Shown here: one piece after another, positions 4,575 through 63,629 of the stretch | Position numbering within the stretch: the first letter of the stretch is position 1 | Layout of the letters: each line of letters opens with the position of its first letter | From: an uncultured archaeon | GTDB lineage: Archaea > EX4484-52 > LFW-46 | DNA length: 64,000 nucleotides | Direction: 5' to 3' | NCBI GenBank assembly: GCA_902384675.1 | Contig: CABMCT010000031.1 | Coordinates: 3,425 to 67,424 of the forward strand | Notes under the pieces: model-generated | The model's input: the letters and a program-made list of their open reading frames with translations, nothing else | The model's database searches: none | What the model was told of the DNA's origin: nothing | Program-made: the position numbers and the translations under genes

Positions 4575-4692
4575 GGATGTATATTGTGCCGAAAAATATA
4601 TTAAGCTTATAAGAATTCAAAAAAATCATGGCACTCGTATGTCAAGCTTTTCATTCCGAAGAAGTTGATGAATGAATAAAAATTAGCGGCTC

Positions 4693-4736
4693 TATAGAGA
4701 CAGTGAAGAAGATTTTATCTCTATAGAGCCTAAAAA
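4693..4736 (-). terminator. Perfect 13-bp-stem hairpin followed (minus sense) by a T-rich tract; likely terminator of the pilin-like gene
   Basis: ggctctatagaga...tctctatagagcc inverted repeat immediately 3' of the 4756..5223 gene. Confidence 0.45.
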
Positions 4737-4755
4737 CTCTTTAATATTTTTTAGT

Positions 4756-5223
4756 TTAGCAGGTTACTCCTGGTCCTGCCGTCGTCGGGTCGCATGTGAA
4801 TGAGATGTCATAGCCGCCGGGGGTTGCAAGCCTTATTATCTTGGTTTGAGCCACGCTCGGGAAGCTTACATTTGTATTTATTGTCAAAACCTGGTTTGGC
4901 GCAAGCGACTGGCCGCTAAAACCCGTGATTGTTGCAGCCTGGCCGTTCAAATAGTATGCTGTTCCTGCAGCTCCAAGGTCCACTGCCGTTGTTCCCGTGT
5001 TTCTAAGGGCGATCGAGATGTTTGAAAGCGAGTTATTCCACATGGAATCCGCTTTAAGGGATGTCTGGGCCTGCTGCTGTATTTGGTTGACTCCCTGGGT
5101 TCCTGTATCCTGGGCACCCTTTTGCAGACCGCCTACCCACATGTAGGCTAATCCCGCTGCTGCAACAGTCATCATGAGCAGCAAAACAATCGCCACAACC
5201 GCCGTTATTCCTTTTTTTCCCAT
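4756..5223 (-). CDS. Archaeal type IV pilin-like protein (class III signal peptide)
   Basis: MGKKGITAVVAIVLLLMMTVAAAGLAY: short charged N-terminus followed by a hydrophobic helix; Thr/Gly/Asn-rich body. Confidence 0.7.
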   Translation of the reverse strand: MGKKGITAVVAIVLLLMMTVAAAGLAYMWVGGLQKGAQDTGTQGVNQIQQQAQTSLKADSMWNNSLSNISIALRNTGTTAVDLGAAGTAYYLNGQAATITGFSGQSLAPNQVLTINTNVSFPSVAQTKIIRLATPGGYDISFTCDPTTAGPGVTC

Positions 5224-5324
5224 TTTTAATCAACTCCATTTTCATTGGATTAAAAAGCTTTCTGCGTTAGCAGAATGATGTATTTCACCTAATTTATTGA
5301 GATTTAACGCATGATTGAAAAATA

Positions 5325-5882
5325 TTAGCACCATGTTTGCGAGGATGAAGGTATATCGCATTTGTATGGGACCTCGGTTCCCAAATCTGTTACTATTTTT
5401 ATTGTTTTAGGATTGCCTACCGTAACAAAATTCTCCTGTGTGTTTACGGTGGTCACACCCCCTGGCGAAAGACCGCCATCCGGATTATAAGTGGGGATAG
5501 TTGTTACCGGGACCCCATTAGCATACAATGAAAATTTTGATACATCTGCAAATGCATATGAACCAGTATTTCTAAGTATAAATGAAATTTTTCCAGCGTC
5601 ATTCCACATCGAATCTATGTTTAGTTTTGCGCCGGTTCTCGCCTGATTTTTATTGAGGTCGTCTTGTGCATTGATCTGGATGCTATTTTGCGTATTCATA
5701 ATCCATTTGTAAGCTAATCCCGCTGCTGCAACCGTCATCATGAGCAGCAGGACAGTTGCAACGATAGCAGTTACACCTTTTTTCGGGACACGCCCGAAAA
5801 TCCGTTCGCTCCACTCTCGGCTTTCCAAGCTTAGCTTGGAAAAGCTTGAAAATCTATGATGATTTTCATGATTTCTTTCCAT
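5325..5882 (-). CDS. Pilin-like paralog; annotated N-terminal 33 aa are read through a dispersed-repeat copy, true start uncertain
   Basis: KKGVTAIVATVLLLMMTVAAAGLAY is identical in core to the 4756 gene; upstream MERNHENHHRFSSFSKLSLESREWSERIFGRVP is encoded by repeat-element DNA (5790-5882). Confidence 0.6.
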   Translation of the reverse strand: MERNHENHHRFSSFSKLSLESREWSERIFGRVPKKGVTAIVATVLLLMMTVAAAGLAYKWIMNTQNSIQINAQDDLNKNQARTGAKLNIDSMWNDAGKISFILRNTGSYAFADVSKFSLYANGVPVTTIPTYNPDGGLSPGGVTTVNTQENFVTVGNPKTIKIVTDLGTEVPYKCDIPSSSQTWC

Positions 5883-5914
5883 TCTTTAACCCCGAACTAT
5901 TGATATGCTTTAGT

Positions 5915-6217
5915 TTATTTATTCTTTATTCCTTTTTGTTCTATCCTTACTAAAAAAATTGATATCAATAGCAGTGCTCCAAGAGTTAACATTTGGAAAA
6001 ATACGCTTACGATAGACAACGTTAGCCCGTTAAACTGTACCGCTGCGCCGACGATAAGTGTTGCAGAAATAATGACCACCGCAAGAGCCACAGCAAGCAT
6101 TGCTTGCATACTATCCGATGTTTGAAGCTTTGACTTATTGGTTATGCGAATCACAAAATCTCCTTTCCATATTATAGAACTAGCGAATATATATACTTTA
6201 AGGCTGGTTATCCGCAT
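5915..6217 (-). CDS. Small membrane protein (2-3 TM)
   Basis: 100 aa, hydrophobic. Confidence 0.4.
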   Translation of the reverse strand: MRITSLKVYIFASSIIWKGDFVIRITNKSKLQTSDSMQAMLAVALAVVIISATLIVGAAVQFNGLTLSIVSVFFQMLTLGALLLISIFLVRIEQKGIKNK

Positions 6218-6285
6218 GCGATATTCGATTAGCCGAACATTCGGCTAATCGAAAAGCCTAGAGCGACAGCGAAAGGATACCCCGA

Positions 6286-8052
6286 TTATTCGTAATAAAC
6301 GCCTTTTTCTTTCTGCTTTGTATCTTTCTGAGAATCCGGCTTATTTGCCCTAGGCCTTCCGGATTCTGTTTCTCTCCTGAATGTTATATTCAAGTCTTTC
6401 AGAAATTCATTCATGCCTTCTTTGAGAGCTTTTGGCGCATTTGCGTGCCCTTCTATGGCGGCTTTGCCGAAAAAGATAATCGAGCGGTCGGAAACGTAAT
6501 GGAGAAGAAGCATGTCGTGGTCGATAATCATGCATGTTTTCTGGTTTGCCTCGACAAACTTGCGCATCATTTTTGCGAATTTCACTCTCTGCTCGACATC
6601 AAGGTACGCAGACGGCTCATCAAGCAGGTAAAATTCTACATCCTGCCCGAGGCATATTGCAATTGCAACTCTTTGCAGTTCTCCTCCCGAGAGGCTTGCA
6701 ACCCGGTTATCAAGCAATCCTTCAAGCTCAAGCGGGCGCAAAATTTCCATCTTGAATTCCTGCGAAAGGAATTTCTTGACGCTTCCTGAAAGCAGCTCGC
6801 CGACAGTCCCTGAAAAATCGCTTTTCAAATATTGCGGCTTGTATGCAATCCGCACGGTTTCGGCGAAATCAACATTGTCCGGCTTTACTTCCCCGGCAAG
6901 CATTTTTGCAAACGTTGTTTTTCCAAGAGCATTCGCCCCGAAAACACCGACTATTTCCCCAGCCATAAGCGAGCCGGCATCCACTTTTAGCGAGAACCCC
7001 GAGTCCATGAACTTTTTCCGAAATTCAGGATAGCTTACAACGCTGTACTTTCCCTTAAAAATCTGGCCTGCTGTCCTGAAGTCAAGTGCCTCCTGCCTGA
7101 ATCTTATATTCTCCTCGCGTATGAATCCGTCAAGATATGTGTTTATGCCGCGCAGGGAATGGTATGGCGCGGAAATAATCCCGTAAACCCCTGCATGGCC
7201 GTATACAAGATGCACGATGTCTGCAAGAATATCCAAGGTTGCAAGGTCGTGCTCTACCACAAGAACTGCTTTCTCTGCTGCAAGTTCTTTTATCGCTTTT
7301 GCAACAATGACACGATGCCTTACGTCCAGAAAAGACGACGGCTCGTCAAAGTAATAGAAGTCCGCATCCTTGCATATCGCTGCGGCAATTGCAACTCTTT
7401 GCAGTTCTCCTCCCGAGAGGTCTGCTATATTTCGCAAAAGTATGGATTCTATCTCAAGCTTTTTTGCAATATCTGCGAGAACTTTTCTTTCATCTTTTAG
7501 TAAGTCAGATACTTTTCCGTTTATACTTGCAGGAATTTTGTCGACCTGCTGCGGCTTGTAAACTGCCCTGATTTTTTTGTCGCGCAAATCCTTAAGATAA
7601 GTCATCAATATGCTTCCTTTGAATTTTGCAATTATTTCATCCCATTCGACACCCTTATCGAAATTTCCAAGATTTGGTTTTAGATTCCCACTTAGAATTT
7701 GTAATGCTGTAGTTTTTCCTATTCCGTTTGCGCCAAGAAGCCCGACCACTTTTCCTTTTTCAGGGATGGGCAGGCCATAAAGCCTGAACGAGTTCTTGCC
7801 GTACTGGTGGATGGGGTCGCTTAATTCCTGCTCTATGTTGATAATTGTGATTGCATTTTTAGGGCACTTTTTTGTGCAGATTCCGCATCCGACGCATAGC
7901 TCCTCCGCTATGTAAACCTTCCCGTTCTTCTCGAACACCGTCTCATCGCCGGTTCTTACTCTTGGGCAGAATCTGATGCATGGCTTGTCGCATTTATCCG
8001 GCCTGCACTTCTCCCGGTCGATGACTGCTATGCGTTTTGGCATACAAACCAA
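6286..8052 (-). CDS. abcE1: ABCE1 / RNase L inhibitor (ribosome recycling factor)
   Basis: 588 aa; N-terminal 2x[4Fe-4S] (CRPDKCDKPCIRFCP, CVGCGICTKKCP) plus two ABC cassettes (Walker A GANGIGKT and GANALGKT, LSGGELQRV signatures). Confidence 0.95.
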   Translation of the reverse strand: MVCMPKRIAVIDREKCRPDKCDKPCIRFCPRVRTGDETVFEKNGKVYIAEELCVGCGICTKKCPKNAITIINIEQELSDPIHQYGKNSFRLYGLPIPEKGKVVGLLGANGIGKTTALQILSGNLKPNLGNFDKGVEWDEIIAKFKGSILMTYLKDLRDKKIRAVYKPQQVDKIPASINGKVSDLLKDERKVLADIAKKLEIESILLRNIADLSGGELQRVAIAAAICKDADFYYFDEPSSFLDVRHRVIVAKAIKELAAEKAVLVVEHDLATLDILADIVHLVYGHAGVYGIISAPYHSLRGINTYLDGFIREENIRFRQEALDFRTAGQIFKGKYSVVSYPEFRKKFMDSGFSLKVDAGSLMAGEIVGVFGANALGKTTFAKMLAGEVKPDNVDFAETVRIAYKPQYLKSDFSGTVGELLSGSVKKFLSQEFKMEILRPLELEGLLDNRVASLSGGELQRVAIAICLGQDVEFYLLDEPSAYLDVEQRVKFAKMMRKFVEANQKTCMIIDHDMLLLHYVSDRSIIFFGKAAIEGHANAPKALKEGMNEFLKDLNITFRRETESGRPRANKPDSQKDTKQKEKGVYYE

Positions 8053-8093
8053 TAGGTGTTAAAGTATTTAAAATCCCGCTGCAATAAACTTCT

Positions 8094-8624
8094 ATGCCAA
8101 AAATTTCTGTTCAAAAGCCAACGCGATTGATACACCACAATCCGGTCTGTCTTGTGACTTCAAAATCCGATACTGTTGAGAACGTATTTACAGCTTCGTG
8201 GGTCATGCCTGTTTCAAACAACCCGCCGATGGTTGCGCTCAGCGTTGCAAAATCTCGTTTCTCGTATGGGCTGATAAAGAAAAGCGGCGCGTTTGTGCTT
8301 AATATCCCGAACAAATCAATGCTAAAAGAAGTCATTTACTGCGGCAGCGTCTCAGGCAGGGACAAGAACAAATTCGCGGAAATGAAGTTCCAAAAAGAAA
8401 TGTCGCCCCATGCAAATATCCTGCTTTCAAAATGCATAGCATATCTTGAGTGCAAAGTTACCAAAGAAATCGAGGTGAGCGATCGCACTATTTTTATCGC
8501 GGAGATTATTGCAAACGGTGTCCAGAAAGGATTGTTTGAAAACGACAAATGGATTCTTTCGGAAAAATCGGAAATACTTCTTTATTTGGGCGACGGGAAA
8601 TACTGCACAGTTAGACCGGTTTGA
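8094..8624 (+). CDS. Flavin reductase-like FMN-binding protein
   Basis: VCLVTSKSDTVENVFTASWVMPVSNNPPMVALSV split-barrel flavin-reductase signature. Confidence 0.75.
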   Translation: MPKISVQKPTRLIHHNPVCLVTSKSDTVENVFTASWVMPVSNNPPMVALSVAKSRFSYGLIKKSGAFVLNIPNKSMLKEVIYCGSVSGRDKNKFAEMKFQKEMSPHANILLSKCIAYLECKVTKEIEVSDRTIFIAEIIANGVQKGLFENDKWILSEKSEILLYLGDGKYCTVRPV

Positions 8625-9324
8625 ACGCTTCTATAACGACAAGCTCTTCCCAATCAAACTTCTGCCGCGCAATTGCTTTTGCTGAGAAACCGATTTTTTT
8701 GAAGTGCAGCAGTGTTTTTTCATAGCGCGAAAGCGAGGATTCCAACAAGATTATTTTTCCGTGCGGATTCAGGAATTTTGGCGCGTCTTTTAAGAATCGC
8801 TCAATTATTTGCCTTCCGTCTTTTCCGCCATCAAGCGCGATGTTTTTGTAAATCGGTTCATCAGGCAGATACGGCGGATTGAAGACAATCAAATCAAATT
8901 TCCTCTCACTTGCGTTCGAGGCTTTTGAGGATTTTCCAGCTTGTCTGGAAATCATGCCTTGCGGCAAGCTTTTCAACCTTCGGTTGAAAAAGCCGAGAGT
9001 GTAACGAACGGACTCCCTATTCCTCAAAATTCCTTTTACATTCGCGAATAAATCGCTTTTGTGAAATTCTGCATTTTTTATTTTGTTCTGTTCGGCATTT
9101 TCTTTTGCGCACTTTACAGCTTCCGGGTTTATATCAACTGCAAGAACATGTTTCGCTTTCTTCGCTAAAACCAGCGCGATAATTCCGCTTCCTGTTCCGA
9201 TTTCCAAAACATTTTTCCCTTCTAAATTCAAATTCTGGAGCGCAGAAATCAGGAGAAATGTGTCTTCGGCGGGCTCGTAGACGTTTCCTGAAGTTTGGAT
9301 TTGAAAACCGTAAAGTCCGAGCAT
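8611..9324 (-). CDS. HemK/PrmC-like SAM-dependent methyltransferase (NPPY) with an in-frame ~37-aa repeat-derived insertion
   Basis: VLEIGTGSGIIAL motif I and LIVFNPPY motif IV. Segment ESVRYTLGFFNRRLKSLPQGMISRQAGKSSKASNASE between them is encoded by a dispersed-repeat copy (8915-9015). Confidence 0.8.
   Translation of the reverse strand: MLGLYGFQIQTSGNVYEPAEDTFLLISALQNLNLEGKNVLEIGTGSGIIALVLAKKAKHVLAVDINPEAVKCAKENAEQNKIKNAEFHKSDLFANVKGILRNRESVRYTLGFFNRRLKSLPQGMISRQAGKSSKASNASERKFDLIVFNPPYLPDEPIYKNIALDGGKDGRQIIERFLKDAPKFLNPHGKIILLESSLSRYEKTLLHFKKIGFSAKAIARQKFDWEELVVIEAFKPV
8915..9015. mobile_element. MITE-like dispersed hairpin repeat copy inside the hemK-like CDS
   Basis: 84 bp identical to 32819-32902; contains hairpins gcttttcaacc/ggttgaaaagc and ttccag/ctggaa. 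Confidence 0.7.
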
Positions 9325-9451
9325 ACAATCTCCTAGAATATCATGCCTTGCGGCAAGCTTTTCAATCCAGTAAATCCTTTCACTTCGTTCTAGGCTTTTT
9401 AGCCCAAAGTGAAAGGTGAATGGCTAAAAATGGATAATGATTGAAAATGAG

Positions 9452-9724
9452 CGAGCCTGGAGGGATCTTCAGCGGCTTCGGATAGTATTCTGTGACATCA
9501 ACTTCGTTGATGTCGCTCGTTTTTCTCTTTCTACCCGGATTTCAAACCATTCACCAACCGCTTTGGGTTGGAAAGCTTACCAATCGCAATTGGCATGATT
9601 TGTCTATCTCTTTTTGGAAAAAAGAGAAAGAAACCGTTTTTGAACCCCCGACCCCTGGCTTAGAAGGCTTACACGGAATATTTGCATAATCCACAGTGCT
9701 CTATCCAAGCTGAGCTACAGGCCC
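9452..9724 (-). tRNA. tRNA-Arg(UCU) with two non-canonical introns (in anticodon stem ~29/30, 25 nt; in T-loop ~59/60, ~172 nt); CCA not encoded
   Basis: Exon1 GGGCCTGTAGCTCAGCTTGGATAGAGCACTG (9724-9694); exon2 GCCTTCTAAGCCAGGGGTCGGGGGTTCAAA (9668-9639), anticodon loop CTTCTAA; exon3 TCCCTCCAGGCTCG (9465-9452). Exon3 completes the T-stem (GGGGG/CCCTC) and a 7-bp acceptor stem against GGGCCTG. Confidence 0.5.
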
Positions 9725-9762
9725 GTACTCCTTAATTATTGCAGAAAAAGAATTTAAAGAGA

Positions 9763-10035
9763 TTAATCCGCCTCAATAATTGCCCCGAACTCTTTCGCAA
9801 TCCTCTCGGCATCCTCCTTTGTCTTAATGTTCTTTGCCATTATTTTACCGCTTTTAAACAGCGTAATTTCGGAATCAGGCGACTTTAGGAGCAGGACTTC
9901 CGGAGTTTCAACACATACTTCGAATTTTGTGCCCTTGAGCTTCTGTATTATGCTTTTGAAATCGACTTTGCGCAAGCCGTCGAAATTTATCACAAAAACA
10001 GTCCCGCCTGCGCAGGGTTTGACGACGAATGACAT
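9763..10035 (-). CDS. Single-repeat TBP-fold protein (half-size TATA-binding-protein-like domain)
   Basis: 90 aa; SEITLFKSGKIMAKNIKTKEDAERIAKEFGAII parallels the TBP repeat motif (LIFsSGKiVcTGAKSeed...arkyarii). Confidence 0.45.
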   Translation of the reverse strand: MSFVVKPCAGGTVFVINFDGLRKVDFKSIIQKLKGTKFEVCVETPEVLLLKSPDSEITLFKSGKIMAKNIKTKEDAERIAKEFGAIIEAD

Positions 10036-10893: not shown

Positions 10894-11313
10894 AATTCAT
10901 TCCTTATTTTCGAGGTGGACCAATCCTCATTGTGAGTCCAAGTCGTTCTTCATTCTTTTGCTTAATCCTCAAAACCTCCGGTATCGCAGAAATCCCAAAA
11001 AATTGCAATTTCAGAAGTCAACAGTTACCGATGAACATTTGTCTTTTTGATGTCTTTTGTTTATTGTAGTTGTTTTACCAGCTGCAATAAGACGCCTGCA
11101 AGAAATGTTGTGTTTTGAGGAACATTAAGCCCGAATATATCTGTAGAACTAACCATAGCCAACACCTATCCCTTTTTTAGAATTGTAATTACATTTATAA
11201 ATCCGCGCGACCAACAACTAGATATATTGGCGCTTTTTTTCTGTAAATTTTGCAAAAATGTTTCTTTTCAATTGTTTGATTGCTTTATAGAAATGCCATT
11301 AAAGTTACTCTTT

Positions 11314-11646
11314 TTAGACAACTCGCGGCCCCTTGAAAAACCCGTTCTCCTTATGCTTCGTATTAGAAAGCGCATCTTCCTGCGAAAGGCACGGCTCAAC
11401 CAGGTCTTCGCGAAGGGCATTCTTAGTTTCAATCGGCTGGAAAGCAGGCTCTACGCCGTCTGTTTTTGCCTTATCCAGAGTACTAAACGCTGAAAGAATT
11501 TCCTTCATGTCCTTCTCAAACTTCTTTTTCTCGGCTTCGGAAAGCTGGAGCCTTGCGACTTTTGCGACCTTTTCAACAATCCGTTCACTCACTTCGTTCG
11601 TTCTCGGCTTTTGAGAACTCTCTTCTCTCAAAATCAATTCGGGCAT
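11314..11646 (-). CDS. gatC: Asp/Glu-tRNA amidotransferase subunit C
   Basis: VEKVAKVARLQLSEAEKKKFEKDMKEILSAFSTLDKAKTDGVEP, the GatC pattern. Confidence 0.75.
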   Translation of the reverse strand: MPELILREESSQKPRTNEVSERIVEKVAKVARLQLSEAEKKKFEKDMKEILSAFSTLDKAKTDGVEPAFQPIETKNALREDLVEPCLSQEDALSNTKHKENGFFKGPRVV

Positions 11647-11654: not shown

Positions 11655-13040
11655 TTAGTGCTGGAAGTTTAAAAAACCGAAATCCTTTTTTTGTTTTTGG
11701 GGCACGTCAAACAAGTAGTATTTGCTAAACTGCTTTACAATGCTATCCAGCTCGCGCCCGTTTTTTGCAAGCAGTTCCATTACCTCGCTATATGCTTCTA
11801 TTGCGCCCCTGTTTGATTCCTCCCAGTTTATCGCCTCTACGCGCGGCGCTTCTGTATCAACAGGCATCAATGCGTCTGCGTTCTTTTTTGAGAACTCCAG
11901 GACTAAAGGAACCAAAACAGACACAGGGCACGTTTCCTCTATTTTCTTGTAGTGATTCTCTATCGAGTCCTCTGCACTACGGTAGCCCTGCCCTAAACTT
12001 TGGATTTCCTCAAGCATTCCAAAATATTCCTGTCGCTCCTCCACAGACGGTTCAGTATCCGCAATGCTTTTTTCAAAATCTTCCAGCGCCCTCATTTTTT
12101 CCCTGAATTCTTTTCGGCGTTGGGTAAACTCATTTTTGCAGCTTTCCAGCACCGGGTTTTCACTAAATCCGGTGAATTCAGCGTCCTCTGCCTTTGAATT
12201 CTTCATAGCCCTTATTTCAGGGTGTGTGTAAGCATCGATAAGAGCGAGCTCAATTGCGCTGTCAAACTCAAGGGCCTTCAGATACAGCGCCTTGATACTA
12301 TCCATTGACTGTTTTGAAAGCTCATCTTTTTCTGCTTTGCCGGCTTCTGCAAGCGCTTTTACGGCTTTGTCTGCAATAACTGCGGTCTTCAGTTTCAGCA
12401 ATACCTCGTTATACTGCTTAAGGGAATCTTCAAGAGCCGCACGCGCTCCGTCGTAGCAGAATTCGGGATATGCTTCGAATATGGCGTTTACTGTTGTCCT
12501 GTTTATCGCATGCTCTTTGTATATTTCTTTGAATCCCTCGCCGTACGCCCAAAAAACTCTTGCAAGCTGCACGTCGCTTATTTCGCTTCCTTCAAAGAAA
12601 GGCCTGGTATCGGCGCAAAGCCGCGCGTTTTCCGGTGATATAAGGAATTGCTTTTTGGCTTCTATGCTGCGCCTGATAGCCTTTTTGACTTCTTTTTTGA
12701 GCGCGTCCGCTGCGTCTTTGTAAGTGATGTCGGCTTTATCGTACTCCGGGTCGAAGGTTCTGACCGATTCATAAAGCTTTTCTTTTGGGATATTTCCGCC
12801 CCGCAAGCCGGACAGCCACTCTGACATATTTATTGCTTTTTTAACCCATTTGAAGAAGCGATAGTTACAGTCATTTTCCAAATAGTTCCCGTTTTCGGCA
12901 CGCTTCACAAAGTCTTCTGACATTGCTTCAGGGTCGTAGTCTATCCAGCTTTCGGGATCTTTGCATATCTGCAGGTCTCTCAAAAAGCTATCCCTGCCTA
13001 CCATTGTTCTAAAACGCCGCAGCGTATCGTTATAGTTCAT
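11655..13040 (-). CDS. Hypothetical protein (461 aa)
   Basis: Long ORF with protein-like composition; no motif recognised. Confidence 0.6.
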   Translation of the reverse strand: MNYNDTLRRFRTMVGRDSFLRDLQICKDPESWIDYDPEAMSEDFVKRAENGNYLENDCNYRFFKWVKKAINMSEWLSGLRGGNIPKEKLYESVRTFDPEYDKADITYKDAADALKKEVKKAIRRSIEAKKQFLISPENARLCADTRPFFEGSEISDVQLARVFWAYGEGFKEIYKEHAINRTTVNAIFEAYPEFCYDGARAALEDSLKQYNEVLLKLKTAVIADKAVKALAEAGKAEKDELSKQSMDSIKALYLKALEFDSAIELALIDAYTHPEIRAMKNSKAEDAEFTGFSENPVLESCKNEFTQRRKEFREKMRALEDFEKSIADTEPSVEERQEYFGMLEEIQSLGQGYRSAEDSIENHYKKIEETCPVSVLVPLVLEFSKKNADALMPVDTEAPRVEAINWEESNRGAIEAYSEVMELLAKNGRELDSIVKQFSKYYLFDVPQKQKKDFGFLNFQH

Positions 13041-14765
13041 ATCAAATCAAAAAGTACACAACCCGAAGGTATAGCGTCAATCTATGTCTTAAACAAAAAC
13101 AAAGACAGTAAAACAGAAATAAACGGGTCATCAGAAAGTTAGGTTAAAACGTGCACAGGAGCGTAGAATCATTCCCTGCAATTATTTGCCTGTTTTTTTA
13201 GTGCAGATTGATACATACATGCTTCTAACACAGGCGGACATGTGCCAAGAACTTGGATTTGCGGTTAGAAACTGCATGCGTAACCCTAGGCTATATTGTG
13301 TGTTTAAACTATATAAAGCTTTTCGACGATTGTCTATTTAAACGTAGTGATATGCCACATGTGAGTAACTATTAAAAAGTTATGAGCAGGTCATTGTCAT
13401 GTTTTTCAAAACAACTTTATTCATAAAATATACGGTTTTTTCTTTAATCTGATTTATGTCTTTTAGACGTAGTCAGGTCGAGGCATCGCGAATATAATTC
13501 GGGATGACAAAAAAGCCGGTGACGAGAGACACAGTAGACGCTGTGGGTAGTTCTACTTCTAGATTACCACGGCTGAATTGTCTTTGGTCAATTACAATCA
13601 TACCATCTGATGAAACGGAAGAAAAACGTCGAGGGGATGGTGCACGAGCAACGCCGTGCGAGCAATTTATTGCTCATGAGAGTTGCCAAAAGTATGGAGG
13701 CAAAGTATTATGGAGAGAACCAGTTTGGTAAAAAAGAGGTTTCAAAACCTCGGAGTCGAAAGTGACAGCTGCGGGATAATTGGAGGCGGTATAGATGGCG
13801 GAGAAATCGGGTTCTGAACCAGAGATTGACAAGACCTCAATAATTGCTCGGTTCGAAGAACTTTCGTCGGAAAAACAAGAAGCGCTCAACGCGCAGGTTG
13901 AAATCGTGGCGGAAAAGGAAGGCAGGATAATTTAACTGCAGTTCTGTGTAATGGACGAAGCGCCCACTCCCTTTGTCCATTACTTTTTTACGATGATAAA
14001 TAATTAACAGGAGGTGAAACATGAAGCAAAAAGGAAGAACTGGGAGGACTAAAGATAGGATAAGCCGAAGAAACCGATTAGTGAACCACGGTTAGTCGCG
14101 AGCTTTCTTTCTTTTAATTTCTTAATTTTTCCTTTTTTTACATTCATAACCCACTCAAGGGTTTTGAAGCAGGCGAAGTAGTGGCAACGTCTTCTTTAAA
14201 TAAATCCACTTTGGGCGCCGCTGTTCTTAGCAAACAATGCCTTTTTAGGGCATCAATTAGGACGGCGGCAAACAGTTTTGCAGTAACTCTTTTTTCTCTA
14301 AAAAAGAGGGGATGGACAGTTGTGGAAAAAAGTGACGGCAAGCGGTGGCGTTTGCCGGAGGTAAAATATGCGAGCTATTCAAGGAATACATAACAAGCGG
14401 ATCGGTGGATCCGGTAAAGAATCGTGGAAATATGGTGGAAACCGAGGGGATTCAAATGCAGGCAGTTGGCGACCTTTCTAGCGGAGAACTAGGGGGTGCT
14501 TTGGGACAAAATCCGCTCTTGCGGATAATAGCCTATGCGGAGCGTAAGGTTATTGACGGTATACGCGGATTGGCGTTGCGCCTAGGGCTCTATGTCGAGC
14601 CAGAGGAGCGACCTATACTCACTGCCGTTCGTATACCTGATGTGGTGACGTTCCAAGGCATTAGAAGGTCTTGCGTGGTTAAGCGCCTTCTGGATCCTTT
14701 TGGAAGAATAGTTGAAACATACTATCTCTTTTCAGGAGGTGCATCCTCCCCTACTTTTTTTCTCT

Positions 14766-14858
14766 TATATATCATTATCAGATATTAGTGAAACATCTTT
14801 AAATATTCTCCTCCCCATAATTGTCTTAAGTCCTGCTGTTTCGTCTTTCGTCGTGATT
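14766..14858 (+). promoter_or_regulatory. Copy A of shared ~95-bp TATA-containing promoter/leader repeat (upstream of 14860 gene)
   Basis: T-run, then tatatcattatcagata, ~45 bp, then gtcttaagtcctgctgtttcgtcttt; ~75% identical to 18401-18490. Confidence 0.6.
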
Positions 14859-14859: not shown

Positions 14860-15432
14860 GTGATAACTATGGTCCGCCCGCCAAAGGAAGTAAAAGACCT
14901 GACAAAGCGCTATATCAAGCCCGATGAGGTTTATCGGGAACTTGAAGAGCGACCTGAGCCGCGCTTTCTTGAGGAGCCGGAGGAAGAGTATCTCGAGAAG
15001 GAGCCAAAGGAGAAGATAATTAAGCTCCGCGAGCGGGAGACGCTTCCAAGGGCAGAGGATGAGGAGATAAAGTCCCTGCAAAGGGTGAGCCCGCAAATAA
15101 TCGGAAACCTGTTTGACCGTGTGCGGTTTTTAAGCGAGAGGATAGCGGAATTAAAGGCCGCAATCGAGGAGCGAAAGCGGGTAAATAAGGAAATACTTTC
15201 GGAAATAAACGAGGATATCCTGACAAGAAAGGAATTCATGCGCACTCTGGCAGAATTGTCGGACAAGCGGGATTTTATGCTTGATATGTCCCTTCTTGCG
15301 CGGGAAAAGCGAAAGGAAAACGTGCAGTTCTGGCGCGATTTATTGGAAATATCAACCGAATTGCGCGAATTGCAGGAACAGTGGGAGATGGAAAGCAAGA
15401 TTGCATCGATATTTAACTCGATTAAGAGTTAA
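14860..15432 (+). CDS. Acidic coiled-coil protein, unknown function
   Basis: 190 aa, E/K/R-rich heptad-like sequence; probable start at ATG 14869. Confidence 0.5.
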   Translation: MITMVRPPKEVKDLTKRYIKPDEVYRELEERPEPRFLEEPEEEYLEKEPKEKIIKLRERETLPRAEDEEIKSLQRVSPQIIGNLFDRVRFLSERIAELKAAIEERKRVNKEILSEINEDILTRKEFMRTLAELSDKRDFMLDMSLLAREKRKENVQFWRDLLEISTELRELQEQWEMESKIASIFNSIKS

Positions 15433-15885
15433 ATAGCTGAGAGCGGCAGCGAAAGGATATTTGATTCTATCAATACGAAGTGATTCCTATGGTCGTAAGC
15501 ACAAAATATGTCGGGTACAGGGGCCTTTCGTACTGCATATATTGCGATATTCGCGACAGGGTGCAGAAGGCAGTGCGCAGGCTCATCAATCGCCTTAAAG
15601 GAAAGAAAGAGGAAAAAACACGGCAGAAAAAAGACCTCGGCTACAGGCGCTGGATGAAGACCGAATGGGGAGGAGGAGAAGTGTAGGCATTGAGAGGCAA
15701 TTGCATTGTACAGCCTACAATTCGACGACGAGTGAGGAGGAGAAGTATGATTTCTTTGTGCATAGCTTTATTGAGTACAAATCATATTTCGATTGGAGGC
15801 GAGGTATAATGGGATTGTACGTAGAGCTCATTGAAAACCATTGTACTGAGCCGATTGGTGGGGAAGTATAGATAATCATAAAGCT

Positions 15886-18367: not shown

Positions 18368-18400
18368 GGCAACTGCCCATTTCTTTTTTATTTTCTTAAC

Positions 18401-18490
18401 TATATCATTATAAGATACTTTTAAACCTTTAAATACCTCGCGCGCCAATATGTCTTAAGTCCTACTGTTTCGTCTTTTGTGAGGATTATA
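18401..18490 (+). promoter_or_regulatory. Copy B of the shared promoter/leader repeat (upstream of ATPase gene)
   Basis: tatatcattataagata ... gtcttaagtcctactgtttcgtcttt; see 14766-14858. Confidence 0.6.
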
Positions 18491-18601
18491 TTTTCGCTCG
18501 CAGCATAGTTTGATGACGAAAAATCCGTCGCGACACCTTATGAACCATTGATTGTGTCGCTTTCGGCTTTTAAATCCAATGAATATGGGGAATGATTTAA
18601 A

Positions 18602-22502: not shown

Positions 22503-22578
22503 GCCCGGATAGTGTAGTGGCCTATCATGAAGGACTATCAATCCTTCGACCCGGGTTCAAATCCCGGTCCGGGCGCCA
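22503..22578 (+). tRNA. tRNA-Asp-like gene with anticodon ATC (A34) and encoded CCA
   Basis: GCCCGGA acceptor paired with TCCGGGC, T-arm CCGGGTTCAAATCCCGG, anticodon arm GAAGGA-CTATCAA-TCCTTC. Body matches the archaeal tRNA-Asp(GUC) family except G34A and C38A. Confidence 0.75.
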
Positions 22579-22658
22579 TTCTATTTTTCTTTTTTCTTTA
22601 TTATATCATTATCAAATATATCATAACTATATAAACTCTTTCAGCCAATATATCCTGC

Positions 22659-49194: not shown

Positions 49195-49218
49195 GACCTC
49201 CTAATATCCTTTGGCTCT

Positions 49219-52083: not shown

Positions 52084-52932
52084 TTAATCGCTGCGCATAA
52101 GATCCATGACGTCGTTTTTGTTTCCGCCAGCAGACCTTAGCATTTCCAGTGCCCATGAAATATCGCCTACTTTTGAAGCATGGTGCGCATCGGAGCCGAT
52201 GCTGAATTTTACGCCATGGAACCTGCATATCCTGATAAACTCAGGCGGAGGCACGCAGTAGTTCGTGTTTATTTCAACAGCCTTCCCGTGTGCACCAATA
52301 AAGCTGGCAAGATTGTGCATTTCGGTTTCATCAGGCATCGTGATGTTGAACTTATGCAATAGGTCAAAAGGATGGCCTATGATATCGACTGATTTGTTCC
52401 TGCATATCGCCCTGAGCGCCTCAAGGTATACTTCCTTTGTTTTATGCGGGTCCAGCTTCTGTATAGTCGTGTCCCCTTCCATTATGTTCAGGCCAGGAAT
52501 CCTGTGAAGAGAGCAGACAATAAGTTCTGCACGATTTTCTGCGGATTTTGAAATGTCCAATGTTCCGTTCATATCAAGAAGCTTGGTTTCAAATCCGAGA
52601 ATCACTGCGGAGCCGCTGCTTTTTCTTCCATTTTCTACAGCTTCGATGTATTTGTCAACCCATGGAGAGCCAGCCCTTATATGTTCGGTTATTGCAATCT
52701 TTGCAAGGCCCTTTTCATTTGCAGCCCGAATCATATCCTGGACGCTTGAGTCCCCGTCGGTAAAATTCGTGTGCATATGAAAATCGGATTTTATTTCCAA
52801 CGCTCGAAAGCGCTGTTGGATCCGTTCGCTTGCGCTCTCGGCTTTCCAACCCAAAGCAGTTGGTGAATGGTTGCAAAAGGTTTGAAACTCGTGCCTTTTG
52901 CAAGCGAGTTTCATGATCTTTATTTCTTCCAT
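52084..52932 (-). CDS. PHP-domain phosphoesterase
   Basis: HMHTNFTDGDSSVQDMIRAANEKGLAKIAITEH; N-terminal ~40 aa repeat-derived. Confidence 0.75.
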   Translation of the reverse strand: MEEIKIMKLACKRHEFQTFCNHSPTALGWKAESASERIQQRFRALEIKSDFHMHTNFTDGDSSVQDMIRAANEKGLAKIAITEHIRAGSPWVDKYIEAVENGRKSSGSAVILGFETKLLDMNGTLDISKSAENRAELIVCSLHRIPGLNIMEGDTTIQKLDPHKTKEVYLEALRAICRNKSVDIIGHPFDLLHKFNITMPDETEMHNLASFIGAHGKAVEINTNYCVPPPEFIRICRFHGVKFSIGSDAHHASKVGDISWALEMLRSAGGNKNDVMDLMRSD

Positions 52933-53579: not shown

Positions 53580-54139
53580 AAATCACAGCATCACCCCGGT
53601 TAAAGCAGAAATCAATGCGCAAAGAAGAACGTTTGGTTTTGCACAATAACTATGGACGTTTTGGAAGAATTCTGCGAACATATCATCACCTTAAGAGTAG
53701 CGGTGTATTATCTCCCTTAAGATGGATATATCGGTTGCTCTTTAGCTTATGAGTATGAGAATACAGTATATAAACTTTCAAAATATTTTTGCCAAAAAAT
53801 CGCTAAACGCCGAAGATAAAAAATTCGTCAGGCGTTGAAAAGAAATATTTTTTCAGGGTGTGCTGTGCAAAAATGCATAACGAGAATCAGACGATGTTTG
53901 CGGGCTTAGAATCGGCGATTGCGTAATAATATAGAACCTTATTCACTTGCAATACGGGCAGTTGCATGCAGTTCTAGTTCCATTGTCCCGTGCGCCCGCC
54001 AGCTTTTTTTCAATATAACCTGCTTCGTTAGGCATATCGAATTGAGAGTTGATATCTACTATAATAGGACCTACAACGTTTCCTATAGTTCGTTCCGCAT
54101 ATATTTGTCCGGACATATAATCCATCATTTACTATTTTT

Positions 54140-54889: not shown

Positions 54890-55075
54890 TCACATCACCT
54901 GCAGCGCGTATTTACCCGGCACTGCAATTCCCGCCTTTTTCGCGATTTCGGAATCAGGGCTGAATACGACAATTACTCCTTTCCAGTTGGTTGTCAGGTC
55001 GTTTGATTTGCATACGTCGCATTCGTTTCCTTCCTCAATCAGGCGTTTACAAACCCTGCATGCGCGTTCATTCAT
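54890..55075 (-). CDS. spt4: Transcription elongation factor Spt4 / RNAP subunit E''
   Basis: ACRVCKRLIEEGNECDVCKSNDLTTNWKGVIVVFSPDSEIAKKAGIAVPGKYALQV. Confidence 0.8.
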   Translation of the reverse strand: MNERACRVCKRLIEEGNECDVCKSNDLTTNWKGVIVVFSPDSEIAKKAGIAVPGKYALQVM

Positions 55076-55273
55076 TTTTAACCATCTCCAATAATCATAA
55101 TTTTCATTTGCTCTGGGTTAAAAAGCCGAGAGTTCCGCACATAATGGTTAGTAAGGCGGAACGAACGGATTTCCAACAATTAACATATTGCTTTGGGTTG
55201 GAAAGCTTGATATGTTAATATCATGATTTTTCGCCGTTAACCTAATGCATTAGGCGAAAATATCTTTTTCACC

Positions 55274-55882
55274 TTATTTCTCTTTTTTGCCCTTTTCCTT
55301 GGGCTTTTCCTCTTCTCCTGCTTTCTTGGCCTTTTTTTCCTTCTCTTTTCTTTCGGCTTCTATCCAGTCAAGAGAACCCAGACCATCCTGGCGCATTGTG
55401 ATTGTGATTTTGTTCACTTCCTTTTTCTCAAGGCTTATTGCGGTTATTCGCGCGCGGACCGTATCCCCGATTTTAAGCACTTTTGCGGTTTTTTTGCCGA
55501 CTATGACATTTGCTTTCGGGTCGCGGCTTACGTAATCATTCATGACCTGCGAAATGTGGCACATCCCGTCAATCGGCCCGAATCTTACAAATACGCCGAA
55601 ATCCGTTATGTCTATAACCTGCCCCTCGATGATTTCATGAAGCTTCGGGACAAAGAGCATTGCCTCGAATTTTGCGGAATAAAATATGCCCGGGTCGTCT
55701 GCTTTTATTGTGCCTCCCTTGACATCTGATGCCTGCGTTACTGCAAGCACAACGCCTACATCGGGAATTATGTGGTTCTCGTATTTCTGCACAAGGCTTT
55801 TCAGTACCACGTCTTCTTTTTTGCCGCCGATATTTTCCGGCGGGACTCTTATTTCGTCTTCAAAATTTGCCATTTCGAACAT
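55274..55882 (-). CDS. rpoE: DNA-directed RNA polymerase subunit E' (Rpb7-like, S1 domain)
   Basis: 202 aa; Rpb7 N-domain plus S1 fold (GQVIDITDFGVFVRFGPIDGMCHISQV); Lys/Glu tail. Confidence 0.9.
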   Translation of the reverse strand: MFEMANFEDEIRVPPENIGGKKEDVVLKSLVQKYENHIIPDVGVVLAVTQASDVKGGTIKADDPGIFYSAKFEAMLFVPKLHEIIEGQVIDITDFGVFVRFGPIDGMCHISQVMNDYVSRDPKANVIVGKKTAKVLKIGDTVRARITAISLEKKEVNKITITMRQDGLGSLDWIEAERKEKEKKAKKAGEEEKPKEKGKKEK

Positions 55883-56130
55883 TTTTTATCATTCTCCTTC
55901 TTCTTTAGATAAAAAAGCTTAAAATCCGTAGATTTTATGATTTTTAGCCATCTCCATTTTTAACCATTAGCCCCTTACTTGGGCTAAAAAGCTTGCCACG
56001 TTGTGGCAAGATTAATTCACCATTTACTATAAGAATAAAACCGTACGGGATTCTGGCTCAGGTTGTCTCTAATTAGATGCTGCTTATTCTTTATAAATCT
56101 AATCGGGAGCCAAAACCCCCTAAAATTTCT

Positions 56131-61864: not shown

Positions 61865-62229
61865 ATGCATTTATTTAGGCACCTGTATTGCGCGTCTATG
61901 ATGTTGTCGGCTGCTTTTTTATACGTTTGCAGATCAGCATCCAGTCCTCTTAAAAACTGCCTTTGCGCTTCAGTAAGCGGAATTGTTTCGCTGTCTGAAG
62001 CCGCTTTCGGATTGCCTAACAGGTCGGCCACAAACCAGAATATTTTATGAGCGCCATTTTTCCCGTATTTTTTAATCTGCGCTTCAACTTCGGTTTTAAA
62101 GGCTCCATCTCCTTCGATTAATGCATCAAGCGCGCCATTCCATCCGATGAATCTTGCGTCAATCTGATTTTCATACGGCACGTTCCTTTCGTCAGGGCTG
62201 CAATAAATATGCTTTGCAGAGTTTTGCAT
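61861..62229 (-). CDS. Hypothetical protein
   Basis: 122-aa ORF. Confidence 0.45.
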   Translation of the reverse strand: MQNSAKHIYCSPDERNVPYENQIDARFIGWNGALDALIEGDGAFKTEVEAQIKKYGKNGAHKIFWFVADLLGNPKAASDSETIPLTEAQRQFLRGLDADLQTYKKAADNIIDAQYRCLNKCI

Positions 62230-62318
62230 GATGTATAATTTCTTCTGAAATTTAAATACTTTACGGTAGTTACGTAAGTCAATTAATTATTTATAAATTA
62301 CCGGCACCTATTTAACAG

Positions 62319-62867
62319 ATGAAATGCGCAAACTGCCCGACAAAAGAATGTAATCTCGGAAAGGACTGCCTCGGTAATTCGCCAAAATACAAGGCGCTTT
62401 ACACCGGCAAATATTCCGCCATGATAAAATCTTCTGCAGAAGTGATTCGCGAGGCGCACAGCAAGTTAAACAGGCTTGATGAAATAATATTGTTCTCAAA
62501 GAAAATGAATTATACAAAACTCGGTGTGGTGTTTTGTATCGCCACTAAAAGAGAAGCGGAGATACTGGCCAATAAATTAAAAAACGATTTCGAGGTATAT
62601 TCGGTTTGCTGCAAGGTAAATGGCATTGATAAAAAAGACATCGGCACAGTAAACACAATCGACGATAAGAAGGAAGTGAGCTGCAATCCCTGCTGCCAGG
62701 CCGACGTTTTAAATGGGTTGCATACGGATTTGAATATAATACTCGGCTTATGTGTCGGCCATGATATCCTTTTCCAGGCGGGGAGTAAAGCTCCTTGCAC
62801 AACATTGCTGGTGAAGGACAGGGTTAATGAAAATTGCACTTCAAAAATATTTTTACCGAGCCATTAA
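62319..62867 (+). CDS. Cys-rich metal-binding protein (DUF1847-like)
   Basis: N-terminal CANCPTKECNLGKDC; CCKVNG; CNPCCQADVLN. Confidence 0.5.
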   Translation: MKCANCPTKECNLGKDCLGNSPKYKALYTGKYSAMIKSSAEVIREAHSKLNRLDEIILFSKKMNYTKLGVVFCIATKREAEILANKLKNDFEVYSVCCKVNGIDKKDIGTVNTIDDKKEVSCNPCCQADVLNGLHTDLNIILGLCVGHDILFQAGSKAPCTTLLVKDRVNENCTSKIFLPSH

Positions 62868-62881
62868 CCTATTTCTTAAAA

Positions 62882-62953
62882 TGGACTTGCCGGGAATCGA
62901 ACCCGGAGCCTCCGCCATGCCATGGCGGCGTCATACCGTTAGACCACAAGCCC
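62882..62953 (-). tRNA. tRNA-Ala(GGC)
   Basis: GGGCTTG/CAAGTCC acceptor with G3:U70; anticodon arm CCGCC-ATGGCAT-GGCGG; T-arm CCGGGTTCGATTCCCGG; no encoded CCA. Confidence 0.85.
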
Positions 62954-62968
62954 AATAAATTATATCTT

Positions 62969-63439
62969 CTACTCTCCGAACATCACTTTGATTCCGCAGT
63001 TCGGGCAGATTTTCTCATTTGTCTTAAATCCGCAAGCCGTGCATTTTCCTGTCCAGGCAATCTCCCTTTTTATGCCTTCCTGCATTACGCCGGAATATTC
63101 CAATTTCAAGACTTTTGCAAGATTCTGCACGCCGTAATCATCGGTTATTATTACCGCGCTTTTTCCCTTTTTCTTAAAATCAAGGGCAAGCGCAACAATC
63201 AAGACATCTGTTTTTGACAATTTGTCCTGCGTCTTTTCCCGTGCTTTTTCAGCCTCGCCGATGCTTTCTTTTGTCGGCTCAAGTATTTGTAGGCCCGAAA
63301 GCATGAACCTGTCGATTTCAATTGCTGCAGGCGTTGATTTCATCTCCTCTACAACGCCGTAAACAGTGACGCATGGCTTTTCCGCGAATATCGACTGCAT
63401 GCCGTGTAAAAATACGTTTGAATCAAGTATGTAAATCAT
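62969..63439 (-). CDS. Nob1-like PIN-domain endonuclease with C-terminal Zn ribbon
   Basis: MIYILDSNVFLHG PIN start; CTACGFKTNEKICPNCG ribbon. The ORF's upstream 51 codons (63440-63592) are repeat-element DNA. Confidence 0.7.
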   Translation of the reverse strand: MIYILDSNVFLHGMQSIFAEKPCVTVYGVVEEMKSTPAAIEIDRFMLSGLQILEPTKESIGEAEKAREKTQDKLSKTDVLIVALALDFKKKGKSAVIITDDYGVQNLAKVLKLEYSGVMQEGIKREIAWTGKCTACGFKTNEKICPNCGIKVMFGE

Positions 63440-63629
63440 CTCGTTTCGCTCGCGCTCCACTCGAAGCTTTTGAGGATTTTGGGACATAGGGTTCCCGAAA
63501 GCTTGACGCAACGCGTCATGACACCCTTCCCTCAAAATTTGTTCTTTTTGCATGAGATTATAGAGGCGGGAAAATATAAAAACCATTGCCAATTAATAAA
63601 TATATAAACTTATAACACCGTTATATATT

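Follow-up and report, generated by a model that had tools for sequence, protein, structure and literature searches.

Mosaic palindromic repeats that enter genes and carry a Shine-Dalgarno-ATG module in the genome of a putative DPANN archaeon

Gene content of the window and extent of the repeat family

We analyzed a 64-kb stretch of DNA from an uncultured archaeon (contig CABMCT010000031.1, positions 3,425 to 67,424 of the forward strand), referred to below as the window, and describe a family of short, hairpin-forming repeats scattered over it. The window is the part of this genome covered by our study, and all coordinates refer to it. Its genes are archaeal housekeeping genes and include those for RpoE', an Spt4-like protein, FEN1, ABCE1/RLI, a membrane pyrophosphatase, and archaellin-like pilins. 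The nearest named relatives of the ABCE1 protein are from a "Nanoarchaeota archaeon" (83%), a "Nanohaloarchaea archaeon" (62%), and a "DPANN group archaeon" (61%), and these depositor-given names suggest that the host is a DPANN-type archaeon. An origin in Methanosarcinales or ANME was rejected on the basis of the homologue names. DPANN archaea have genomes that are among the smallest and most densely packed of cellular life.

On our annotated map, the family occupies 24 regions that amount to 2,868 nucleotides (nt), or 4.5% of the window. An initial annotation of this DNA had listed more than 15 copies, and the blocks described there were present at all 21 of its approximate positions; additional copies were found at 2011-2058, 5220-5281, 11576-11636, 15407-15459, 18563-18605, 35709-35840, 40454-40523, and 55072-55127. 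The family exceeds chance by far. Repeat finding in the window returned at least 60 families of direct repeats and 77 inverted pairs. Perfect hairpins (stem of at least 8, loop of 3 to 22) numbered 77 as compared to 8 to 23 in shuffled sequences, and the A-block pattern TCCGTTCGCTNNNNCTCTCGGCTTT had five matches with at most three mismatches but none in 100 shuffles. The copying is recent: segments 8916-9004 and 32820-32908 form an 89-nt pair with 98% identity, and a 26-nt block is found unchanged three times (8951-8976, 32855-32880, and within 9338-9448).

It had also been proposed that the family accounts for most of the long spacers, which the data do not support. On a rough gene map, 12 of the 21 spacers of at least 150 nt contain copies and only 6 consist of repeat for at least half of their length, whereas the three largest gaps (1,230, 560, and 463 nt) contain no copy at all. 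The same map yields 10.9 kb of noncoding DNA, of which 2.36 kb are repeat, and a further 0.51 kb of repeat is intragenic. As a separate observation, the intervals 20753-21982, 53580-54139, 13041-13503, and 10894-11313 have no open reading frame (ORF) of at least 70 amino acids, no family copies, and no Rfam match.

Modular architecture and hairpin structure

The initial annotation described a hairpin-containing repeat of approximately 90 to 110 bp. The hairpin repeats are real, but there is no single unit; the family is rather a mosaic of four modules of 20 to 45 nt each, which are found in both orientations and in many orders. (i) Module A reads AATCCGTTCGC..CTCTCGGC; it is also written AATCCGTTCGCnnnnGCTCTCGGC, and a long form has an internal insert. 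(ii) Module P is a short-loop hairpin, GCTTTTCAACC/GGTTGAAAAGC, with the layout GC-TTTTCAACC-(3-9 nt)-GGTTGAAAA-GC. (iii) Module S has a P-type stem, a 17-nt loop, CCAAAGnAGTTGGnGAAT, with GGnGA, and ATGG directly 3' of the stem. (iv) Module H has the layout (A)ATCATG-variable stem-loop-CAAGCTT; 13 strict H units (TCAT, perfect stem, AGCYT) were counted in the window, as compared to 0 or 1 in shuffles. The joints between modules are the palindromes AAGCTT and TCATGA, and 23 of the 58 AAGCTT sites and 11 of the 26 TCATGA sites of the window fall within the 4.5% annotated as repeat.

The S hairpin is particularly well defined. In an alignment of 16 copies with a 9-bp stem, 96.5% of the cells are paired, and six of the nine pairs vary on both sides (25 cells). 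None of 500 shuffles reached the paired percentage or the covariation score of the real alignment, and pairing dropped to 37 to 61% when the alignment was slid out of register. G-U pairs occupy only 1 of 144 cells, and the other differences are almost all from one Watson-Crick pair to another; mismatches are too few for this scarcity to discriminate between an RNA and a DNA hairpin, and the pattern suits a DNA palindrome equally well. In the window, a covariance model seeded with the 16 copies recovered all seeds together with approximately 14 weaker hits to hairpins that resemble P or S, and it matched nonseed copies in related genomes with E values of 5e-12 to 3e-8. No Rfam family matches the repeats; the Rfam matches in the window are two tRNAs, an RNase P RNA, and a weak C/D box only. 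A reading of the ATGATGA motifs as C/D-box small RNAs was rejected, since the D boxes are inconsistent and Rfam has no match there.

Copies within genes

The insertions in genes, three in frame in protein genes and one in the RNase P RNA gene, were not recognized as such in the initial annotation and are the most telling features of the family. The most elaborate case is the HemK2/MTQ2 gene (8611-9324), in which a nested element of 129 nt (8902-9030, minus strand) adds 43 amino acids in frame between SDLFANVKG and KFDLIVFNPPYLP and predicts the junction peptide ILRNRESVRYTLGFF... Of 13 aligned homologues, 11 lack this insert. The relatives P0002 (on contig L006) and P0003 contain a 16-amino-acid (48-nt) insert only, which corresponds to a reverse A+P, and the extra 81 nt of the window copy (A, P, H, and a hairpin) sit in the loop of the P of this 48-nt unit. 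The whole element folds into an outer stem around four hairpins (z = -5.1 with respect to shuffles); z values were also obtained for 26734-26965 (z = -3.8) and 40454-40523 (z = -3.6), and the first two values support a nesting of copies inside hairpin loops.

Next to this gene, a gene for a flavin-reductase-domain protein (8094-8624, plus strand) lies between HemK2 and ABCE1 in this genome only. The HemK2-ABCE1 interval is a 21- to 25-nt spacer in contigs L002 and L006 and holds a 747-amino-acid gene in contig L004; it is a hot spot of gene insertion.

The second case is a PEP-synthase-like gene (38592-40937, plus strand), where a hairpin followed by H (40454-40523, minus strand, 66 to 70 nt) accounts for a 22-amino-acid insert, QCSKELGRLENQNHMQEDFHDY (+66 nt), with the predicted junction peptide ..QCSKELGRLENQ... 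This insert is absent in all eight aligned homologues, one of which is 60% identical. In a ThiF/MoeB-like gene (1998-2792), 48 nt of H+P (2011-2058, plus strand; hairpin at 2034-2059, matched by the S model) are inserted in frame 3' of codon 4. The window protein thus reads MLSS-NHGTRVPGFPDPRESG-KDNARYSRQ, with the predicted junction peptide MLSSNHGTRVPGF.., as compared to MLSSKDSLRYSRQ in the L002 orthologue, whose empty site is TTCAA/AAGAT (slashes mark junctions). In the pilin-like gene 5325-5882, approximately 95 nt between the ATG at 5882 and AAAAAAGGT lengthen the leader by 33 amino acids; they correspond to the minus-strand reading of a hairpin+A+P+H+S-tail array whose sense strand is the plus strand (5780-5884). 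The leaders of relatives are short (M-x-K-K-G), being encoded by ATG AGA AAA AAG GGC in L002 and by ATG GCT AAG AAA GGA in L004. Since prepilin leaders are removed by cleavage, the extension could be harmless.

Read on its reverse strand, module A offers one shared reading frame (..ES.SERI/K) in four gene-embedded copies. Modules also write the termini of ORFs: the P stem of an A+P at 15407-15459 (minus strand) holds the stop codon of ORF 14860-15432, the PspC gene 27817-28071 takes its final residues and its stop from the H of the array at 28050-28347 (plus strand), and the minus strand of an A+P at 11576-11636 (plus strand) corresponds to residues 5 to 23 of ORF 11314-11646 (..ILREESSQKPRTNEVSERI..). 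The in-frame inserts are predicted to be translated.

Rfam in E-value mode detected an archaeal RNase P RNA gene at full length on the minus strand (28347-28714; 60.6 bits, E = 2e-14). As the gathering score is 84, a default Rfam search misses this gene. Large insertions set the RNA apart from the model, and one of them is a family H unit: the H copy at 28493-28531, part of an H+hairpin region at 28493-28552 (plus strand), falls in a terminal loop, within 64 nt that do not align to the model and that contain CUUGAAAAUC..GAUUUUCAUGA. The copy is 87% complementary to 5841-5871. Its alignment to the Rfam model and its similarity to other H units indicate that this copy is probably an insertion, and family copies would then have pushed the RNase P RNA below the Rfam cutoff.

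Presence and absence in related genomes

Four related contigs are syntenic with positions 1-10,000 of the window. The relatives compared are 12 to 17% divergent in the ABCE1 protein, which is not a strain-level distance. Copies differ at several orthologous junctions. (i) At the start of the pilin-2 gene, L002 has AAGGTGAAGAT and L004 has TTAGGTGGATAAA, each directly followed by ATG (GGTGA../ATG) and without an element; in the window, the old Shine-Dalgarno (SD) sequence TTAGGTGAAATA is followed by 57 nt comprising an H-type hairpin, an S with GGAG, and a spacer, and only then by ATG. (ii) The start of a gene for a 111-amino-acid protein is preceded by a 16-nt spacer in the window and in L002, whereas TAGGTG and ATG are separated in L004 by a hairpin-S-H-S array of 117 nt. 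This array is approximately 75% identical (by eye) to that upstream of rpoE' in the window (55879-56012), and the downstream genes are different; the occurrence of hairpin-S-H-S before different genes in different genomes indicates that the composite is itself a repeated unit. (iii) The spacer following ABCE1 contains A+P in the window (6224-6281, minus strand, 13-bp stem; the ABCE1 stop lies on one side and the next gene's conserved promoter on the other), H+P in L002, and no element in L004, with the AAAGTATATATA box kept in all three. (iv) The H-like+S unit at 4615-4686 (plus strand, antisense to its neighbors; S at 4643-4685, E = 7e-11) is absent from the orthologous spacer of L002.

Beside the latter unit, a hairpin outside the family with a 13-bp stem, GGCTCTATAGAGA..TCTCTATAGAGCC, is found 3' of the pilin genes at 4688-4730 and in L002 at approximately 13856-13900, where it is conserved through compensatory changes. 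It could be read as a terminator or as a small RNA.

The initial annotation had named conserved 5' untranslated regions (UTRs) of an orthologous gene family, syntenic in relatives, as the finding that would speak against mobile DNA. We did not observe copies in the same position and orientation before orthologous genes. As they differ at orthologous junctions, the copies are not conserved 5' UTRs, and mobile DNA is favored.

Family copies are also found at unrelated places in L001, L002, L011, L016, and L023. A scan of genome contigs with the A pattern identified a single locus, indicating that the taxonomic spread is poorly sampled. A scan of metagenomes with a 20-base variable-gap pattern identified 18 loci, with approximately 10 expected by chance on a rough estimate; the three loci inspected, L011, L016, and L023, carry clear family copies, and the remaining loci have no match to the S model. 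A scan of viral contigs with the family pattern gave no match. At 880-1030 of L023, an A+S element lies just 3' of an MCM-like gene and is flanked by an imperfect direct repeat of 24 to 28 nt. This repeat comprises the last codons of the gene (MGRIRKV and stop), and none of its three differences alters the amino acid sequence of the coding copy.

The S module at start codons

The SD-ATG "gene-start" module of the initial annotation proved to be real. The window contains 18 copies of S, and the ATG of six or seven of them is exactly the start codon of a gene. These starts are (i) 18602, of a 716-amino-acid CedD-like ATPase, where S stands alone (18563-18605, plus strand, E = 1.8e-12); (ii) 32612, of a membrane protein, at the end of a 338-nt array (32609-32950, minus strand) that includes a 98%-identical copy of the HemK2 insert; (iii) 55882, of rpoE', the last ATG of the hairpin-S-H-S composite at 55879-56012 (minus strand); (iv) 55077, of the spt4-like ORF, in the last S of an array of a hairpin, H, S, a long A, and an S with a loop insertion (55072-55262, minus strand) between rpoE' and the spt4-like gene; (v) 26737, of a 738-amino-acid protein, in an array (26734-26965, minus strand) with a nested fold made up of S, H within H, a hairpin flanked by ATGAT, a reverse hairpin-form A, P, and H; and (vi) 5223, of the pilin-like gene 4756-5223, following an H-type hairpin (5220-5281, minus strand). 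Four cases retain a recognizable old SD upstream of the array, and GGnGA, an A-rich spacer, and ATG come from the terminal S. With GGnGA in its loop and ATG behind its stem, S would replace the ribosome-binding site that an insertion displaces, and its ATGs are predicted to drive translation. The family had been considered to mimic a translation start; the SD-ATG is indeed present, but S appears to go beyond mimicry, as it stands at what look like the actual start signals.

The membrane protein gene offers an internal comparison. It is one of two tandem paralogues (32058-32612 and 32962-33447, minus strand), the first 106 nt or so of which are 96% identical, suggesting a recent duplication or gene conversion. 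The paralogue 32962-33447 has a plain GTGGAGATACA directly before its ATG, whereas the array separates the SD TAAGGAGGAAGGATAATTA from the ATG at 32612 in the other.

The copies also mislead gene calling, with four clear false N-terminal extensions among the longest-ORF calls of the window (the PHP, DegT, and PIN genes and an ORF of 807 instead of 738 amino acids). A hairpin+A+S+reverse H unit (52797-52917, plus strand) is antisense to the PHP gene and is read through as an N-terminal extension of its longest ORF. An H+hairpin (49129-49197, minus strand) is directly upstream of ATG 49128 (MIIPHSRP), likely the true start of the DegT-family aminotransferase, since the Pfam domain begins at residue 32 of the long ORF. 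An A variant with a hairpin and a reverse H (63436-63535, plus strand) contains, within GAGATGATT, an ATG (63437, minus strand) that is likely the start of the PIN-domain gene.

These data raise the question of whether S is a translation-control hairpin of the host, with an SD-bearing loop and an AUG where the stem ends, so that the arrays are structured 5' UTRs that act as cis-regulatory RNA on the expression of downstream genes; the hairpins would then recur because many genes share one device. The strong covariation of the stem, the position on start codons, the fact that most S copies are aimed at a gene, and array folds that beat shuffles are all in agreement with this idea. It is nevertheless unlikely, because the element is missing from the same genes in syntenic relatives and from the 96%-identical paralogue, and because 11 S copies have no gene behind them, 6 of which have lost the ATG. 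Furthermore, antisense, intracoding, and intra-RNase P RNA copies exist, and the near absence of G-U pairs fits a DNA palindrome just as well.

Unit ends, junctions, and the mode of spread

The units that are delimited by empty sites measure 48, 48, 57, 66, 81, and about 117 to 120 nt and consist of two to four modules each. They have a polarity, 5'-ATC ... AAAA-3'; ATC(A/T)T.. or (T)CC.. stands at their start, and ..GGAA(AA) or ..TTAAAA at their end. No terminal inverted repeats were found at these ends, the palindromes being internal. At five empty-site junctions the ambiguity is 0 to 3 nt, without a common duplicated sequence: 1 nt for the first HemK2 event, an ambiguous TCC for the second, up to three A residues for the ThiF-like gene, and possibly AT in three SD-ATG cases. 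Target sites are A rich (TTCAA/AAGAT, AAAGAA/AAATTC, ..A/ATG), and no single motif fits them all. Units are thus found at A-rich sites, in loops of older copies, between SD and ATG, and inside genes. No transposase, Y1, or TnpB domain and no parent insertion sequence (IS) was found in a scan of 30 window ORFs or among the precomputed Pfam annotations for genes on approximately 36 kb of the relatives' DNA.

One may ask whether transposition is needed at all. The arrays could have grown locally from native SD-ATG regions, through replication slippage, through fold-back or template switching, and through gene conversion and unequal recombination between existing copies. The 3' half of S does resemble a native ribosome-binding site, stems are perfectly complementary as if one arm had been copied from the other, a 40-nt piece is enclosed by a perfect direct repeat of 19 nt within the 32609-32950 array (32608-32688), and the end of the L023 gene is duplicated over 24 to 28 nt. 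Growth in place fails to explain, in turn, why related units occur at distant loci and in three unrelated genes with clean empty sites and why the composite with approximately 75% identity precedes different genes in different genomes; long flanking repeats are, moreover, exceptional in the window. A long target duplication as a general signature was rejected, as a window-wide search gave no further case. We therefore regard purely local growth as improbable.

The initial annotation had suggested a MITE (miniature inverted-repeat transposable element) or small mobile cassette. The data support a small, noncoding, duplicatively spreading cassette but not a MITE in the strict sense, that is, a deletion derivative of an IS that is moved in trans by a DDE transposase and has terminal inverted repeats and a fixed target duplication. 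Prokaryotic MITEs include Correia, ERIC, and RUP, and archaeal ones are known from Sulfolobus, Halobacterium, and Haloquadratum (PMC2229807, PMC10969869, PMC11602168). The family shares with MITEs that it is small, noncoding, nonautonomous, multicopy, mostly intergenic with some in-frame ORF fusions, polymorphic in its insertions, and folded into stem-loops, and the most MITE-dense archaeal genomes are those of DPANN members, Altiarchaeum and a Woesearchaeon (PMC11602168). This density count was the only statement on DPANN repeats found in our literature search. The inverted termini and the fixed duplication that characterize MITEs were looked for and not found; the ends are ATC.. and ..AAAA, two-hairpin units of 48 nt are smaller than usual MITEs, and neither the window ORFs scanned nor the relatives' loci contain an IS. 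With neither inverted termini nor a consistent duplication, and with no transposase seen nearby, we consider a classical MITE very unlikely. The terms "ribosome binding," "Shine," and "start codon" are absent from the text of a 2024 MITE review; a built-in translation start is thus not a recognized MITE feature there.

Relation to known repeat families

The closest parallel in behavior is provided by the Rickettsia palindromic elements (RPEs). According to summaries of the work of Ogata et al. in 2000 and 2002, these are found in many in-frame fusions in conserved genes and as insertions in RNase P RNA and transfer-messenger RNA (PMC2229807, PMC10969869). The same sources point to common traits, namely, small palindromes, a reduced genome, sites that are intergenic, in frame in genes, and in RNase P RNA, and no known transposase. 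Both hallmarks of RPEs recur here: in-frame insertions with element-free homologues (HemK2, PEP-synthase-like, and ThiF-like genes) and, as far as the model alignment and the H similarity indicate, an insertion in a structural RNA gene. In both systems, copies would be tolerated because the reading frame stays open. RPEs differ, in these accounts, in being single units of 105 to 150 bp with terminal inverted repeats, whereas the archaeal family consists of mosaics with movable units of 48 to 130 nt that lack them; no SD-ATG module is described for RPEs, a sequence relation across domains is not expected, and the host here is archaeal. The likeness would be one of behavior and not of homology or membership.

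A second parallel is with repetitive extragenic palindromic (REP) sequences, bacterial interspersed mosaic elements (BIMEs), and REP doublets forming hairpins (REPINs) of proteobacteria. They are likewise mosaics of short imperfect palindromes and linkers in both orientations, with conserved tags at the foot of a variable stem and two-hairpin movable units (PMC3116915, PMC3733652; for BIMEs also PMC2229807). The family under study consists of such 20- to 40-nt palindrome mosaics in both orientations but lacks the GTAG/CGTC tags of REPs and has (A)AGC and (AT)CATG instead. REPs are, furthermore, extragenic and linked to REP-associated tyrosine transposases (RAYTs, Y1 type), whereas the archaeal family enters genes and no RAYT gene was seen among the window ORFs scanned. 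With its archaeal host, its smaller interchangeable modules without inverted termini, and its SD-ATG module, the family is distinct from both RPEs and REPs.

Palindrome-associated transposable elements (PATEs) derive from IS200/IS605, move as single strands by "peel and paste," have neither inverted termini nor target duplication, and possess subterminal hairpins and a polarity. The family resembles them in its lack of inverted termini and of a consistent target duplication, in its hairpins and polarity, and in a putative single-strand target; it differs in that no TnpA or TnpB and no fixed target motif of 4 to 5 nt were found here and in that its units are far shorter. Two further systems, which occur in other lineages and have other sequences, are reportedly comparable: palindromic repeats with coding potential in Methanocaldococcus jannaschii (Suyama et al. 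in 2005), an archaeal precedent, and the 20- to 30-nt hairpin repeats of Nostoc (Elhai et al. in 2008), which are said to nest in one another. To our knowledge, neither includes an SD-ATG module or an RNase P insertion. Neither this family nor any gene-invading repeats of DPANN archaea turned up in our literature search, whose coverage was incomplete, so that the family's novelty is provisional.

Interpretation

Taken together, we consider it probable (approximately 75%) that the family consists of very small, nonautonomous, duplicatively spreading palindromic elements that behave like RPEs and REP/BIME sequences in a compact DPANN-type genome and its relatives. A number of observations weigh against this reading. 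(i) The divergence of the relatives allows individual sites to be explained by loss instead of gain. (ii) The perfect covariation of the S stem and the orientation of 12 of the 18 S copies toward a downstream gene (hits compared with the ORF map) could indicate a host function. (iii) No moving enzyme was seen in the ORFs and Pfam tables scanned. (iv) The longer flanking repeats, of 19 nt at 32.6 kb and of 24 to 28 nt in L023, render the junctions inconsistent. Copies may also have been put to secondary use by the host as leaders or terminators.

Archaeal transcription termination relies on oligo-T. The last alternative is that the copies are punctuation between packed genes, bidirectional terminators or 3'-end stabilizers as proposed for REP/BIME sequences, which agrees with a T run on one or the other strand of every P, S, and H arm (GCTTTTT.., CATTTTT.., GATTTTC..) and with many copies just past stops (ABCE1, PspC, ORF 14860-15432, and the MCM-like gene of L023) but is the least probable of all, because arrays lie within operon-like pairs (rpoE'-spt4) and in SD-ATG gaps that need read-through, because termination would be harmful in coding regions and RNase P RNA, and because relatives manage without copies at the same junctions.

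If the family is indeed a duplicatively spreading element, the following scenario can be envisaged. The elements would be primarily selfish, and their hairpins may secondarily act in mRNA. In a genome with spacers of 15 to 25 nt, nearly every insertion would strike something essential, and the survivors would be copies that keep the frame (HemK2, the PEP-synthase-like and ThiF-like genes, and the prepilin leader), copies in loops of the RNase P RNA, and copies that end in S. The copying enzyme would be encoded elsewhere and would recognize hairpins with the conserved feet AAGC and CATG. Since inverted termini and a fixed duplication are lacking and hairpin loops serve as targets, our guess is a single-strand, hairpin-recognizing mechanism of the REP/RAYT or IS200/IS605 type, with template switching as the alternative.

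A bolder version of this scenario, which we regard as doubtful, is a mechanism new to archaea that recognizes single-stranded hairpin loops and A runs, leaves duplications of 0 to 28 nt, and uses S as a "portable translation start" for settling in the 5-nt SD-ATG gap of genomes nearly devoid of spacer DNA. Candidates would be a hairpin-guided Y1-type enzyme and copying by template switching or in a reverse-transcription-like manner. If this were true, one element family would have written some of the lineage's gene starts, along with some of its protein and RNA loops.

Within 64 kb, one family has lengthened three conserved enzymes in frame, sits in the catalytic RNA of RNase P, and has extended a prepilin leader, and, judged from the sequence, it also appears to stand in for ribosome-binding sites of core genes, rpoE' and the spt4-like gene among them. 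An independent parallel exists in a second lineage that is reduced and host dependent, which suggests a general rule for very compact genomes, in which spread would be limited to translatable elements that bring their own start signals. The tag-flanked modular hairpins offer a clean system for finding the moving enzyme.

Additional copies in the window

The remaining regions illustrate the variety of module arrangements. Upstream of HemK2 and divergent from it is an array of H, A, S, and a partial S tail (9338-9448, plus strand; S at 9391-9433, E = 2e-12). It is followed by H+S at 9536-9603 (minus strand), in which the ATG has decayed to ATCC and which has an inverted match of 92% to 52841-52877. 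An A+P+reverse H at 27033-27125 (plus strand) was recognized as an inverted repeat and by its A pattern and hairpin. The array at 28050-28347 comprises H, S, a hairpin, A, S, a long A, and S, with the S copies at 28082, 28226, and 28305, and adjoins the 3' end of the RNase P RNA. An H+S+A+P unit at 29120-29262 (plus strand) contains the best S of all (E = 6e-14), and there is no gene start at its ATG. Finally, hairpins, a long A, and S form an array at 35709-35955 (minus strand) in the divergent spacer beside the FEN1 gene.

Other features of the window

Near the repeats upstream of HemK2, at approximately 9630-9735 (minus strand), lies a sequence resembling the 5' portion of a tRNA, GGGCCTGTAGCTCAGCTTGGATAGAGCA ... 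GGGGGTTCAAA, without a proper T stem or 3' end. An intron-containing tRNA was rejected at this site, as neither ARAGORN with introns allowed nor Rfam calls a tRNA; the sequence could be a truncated, split, or permuted tRNA. Three minus-strand ORFs, 11655-13040, 24521-26737, and 44222-48013 (461, 738, and 1,263 amino acids, respectively), have no or almost no Pfam or NCBIfam match. A separate repeat, TTTTCTT(n)ATATATCATTATCA(G/A)A, is found at 14751-14784, 18384-18417, 22585-22618, and 44128-44152; it looks like a shared TATA-type promoter box outside the hairpin family. The tRNA-Asp gene at 22503-22578 (plus strand) has the anticodon loop CTATCAA, and hence AUC (A34) as compared to the usual GUC, and its 3' CCA is encoded.

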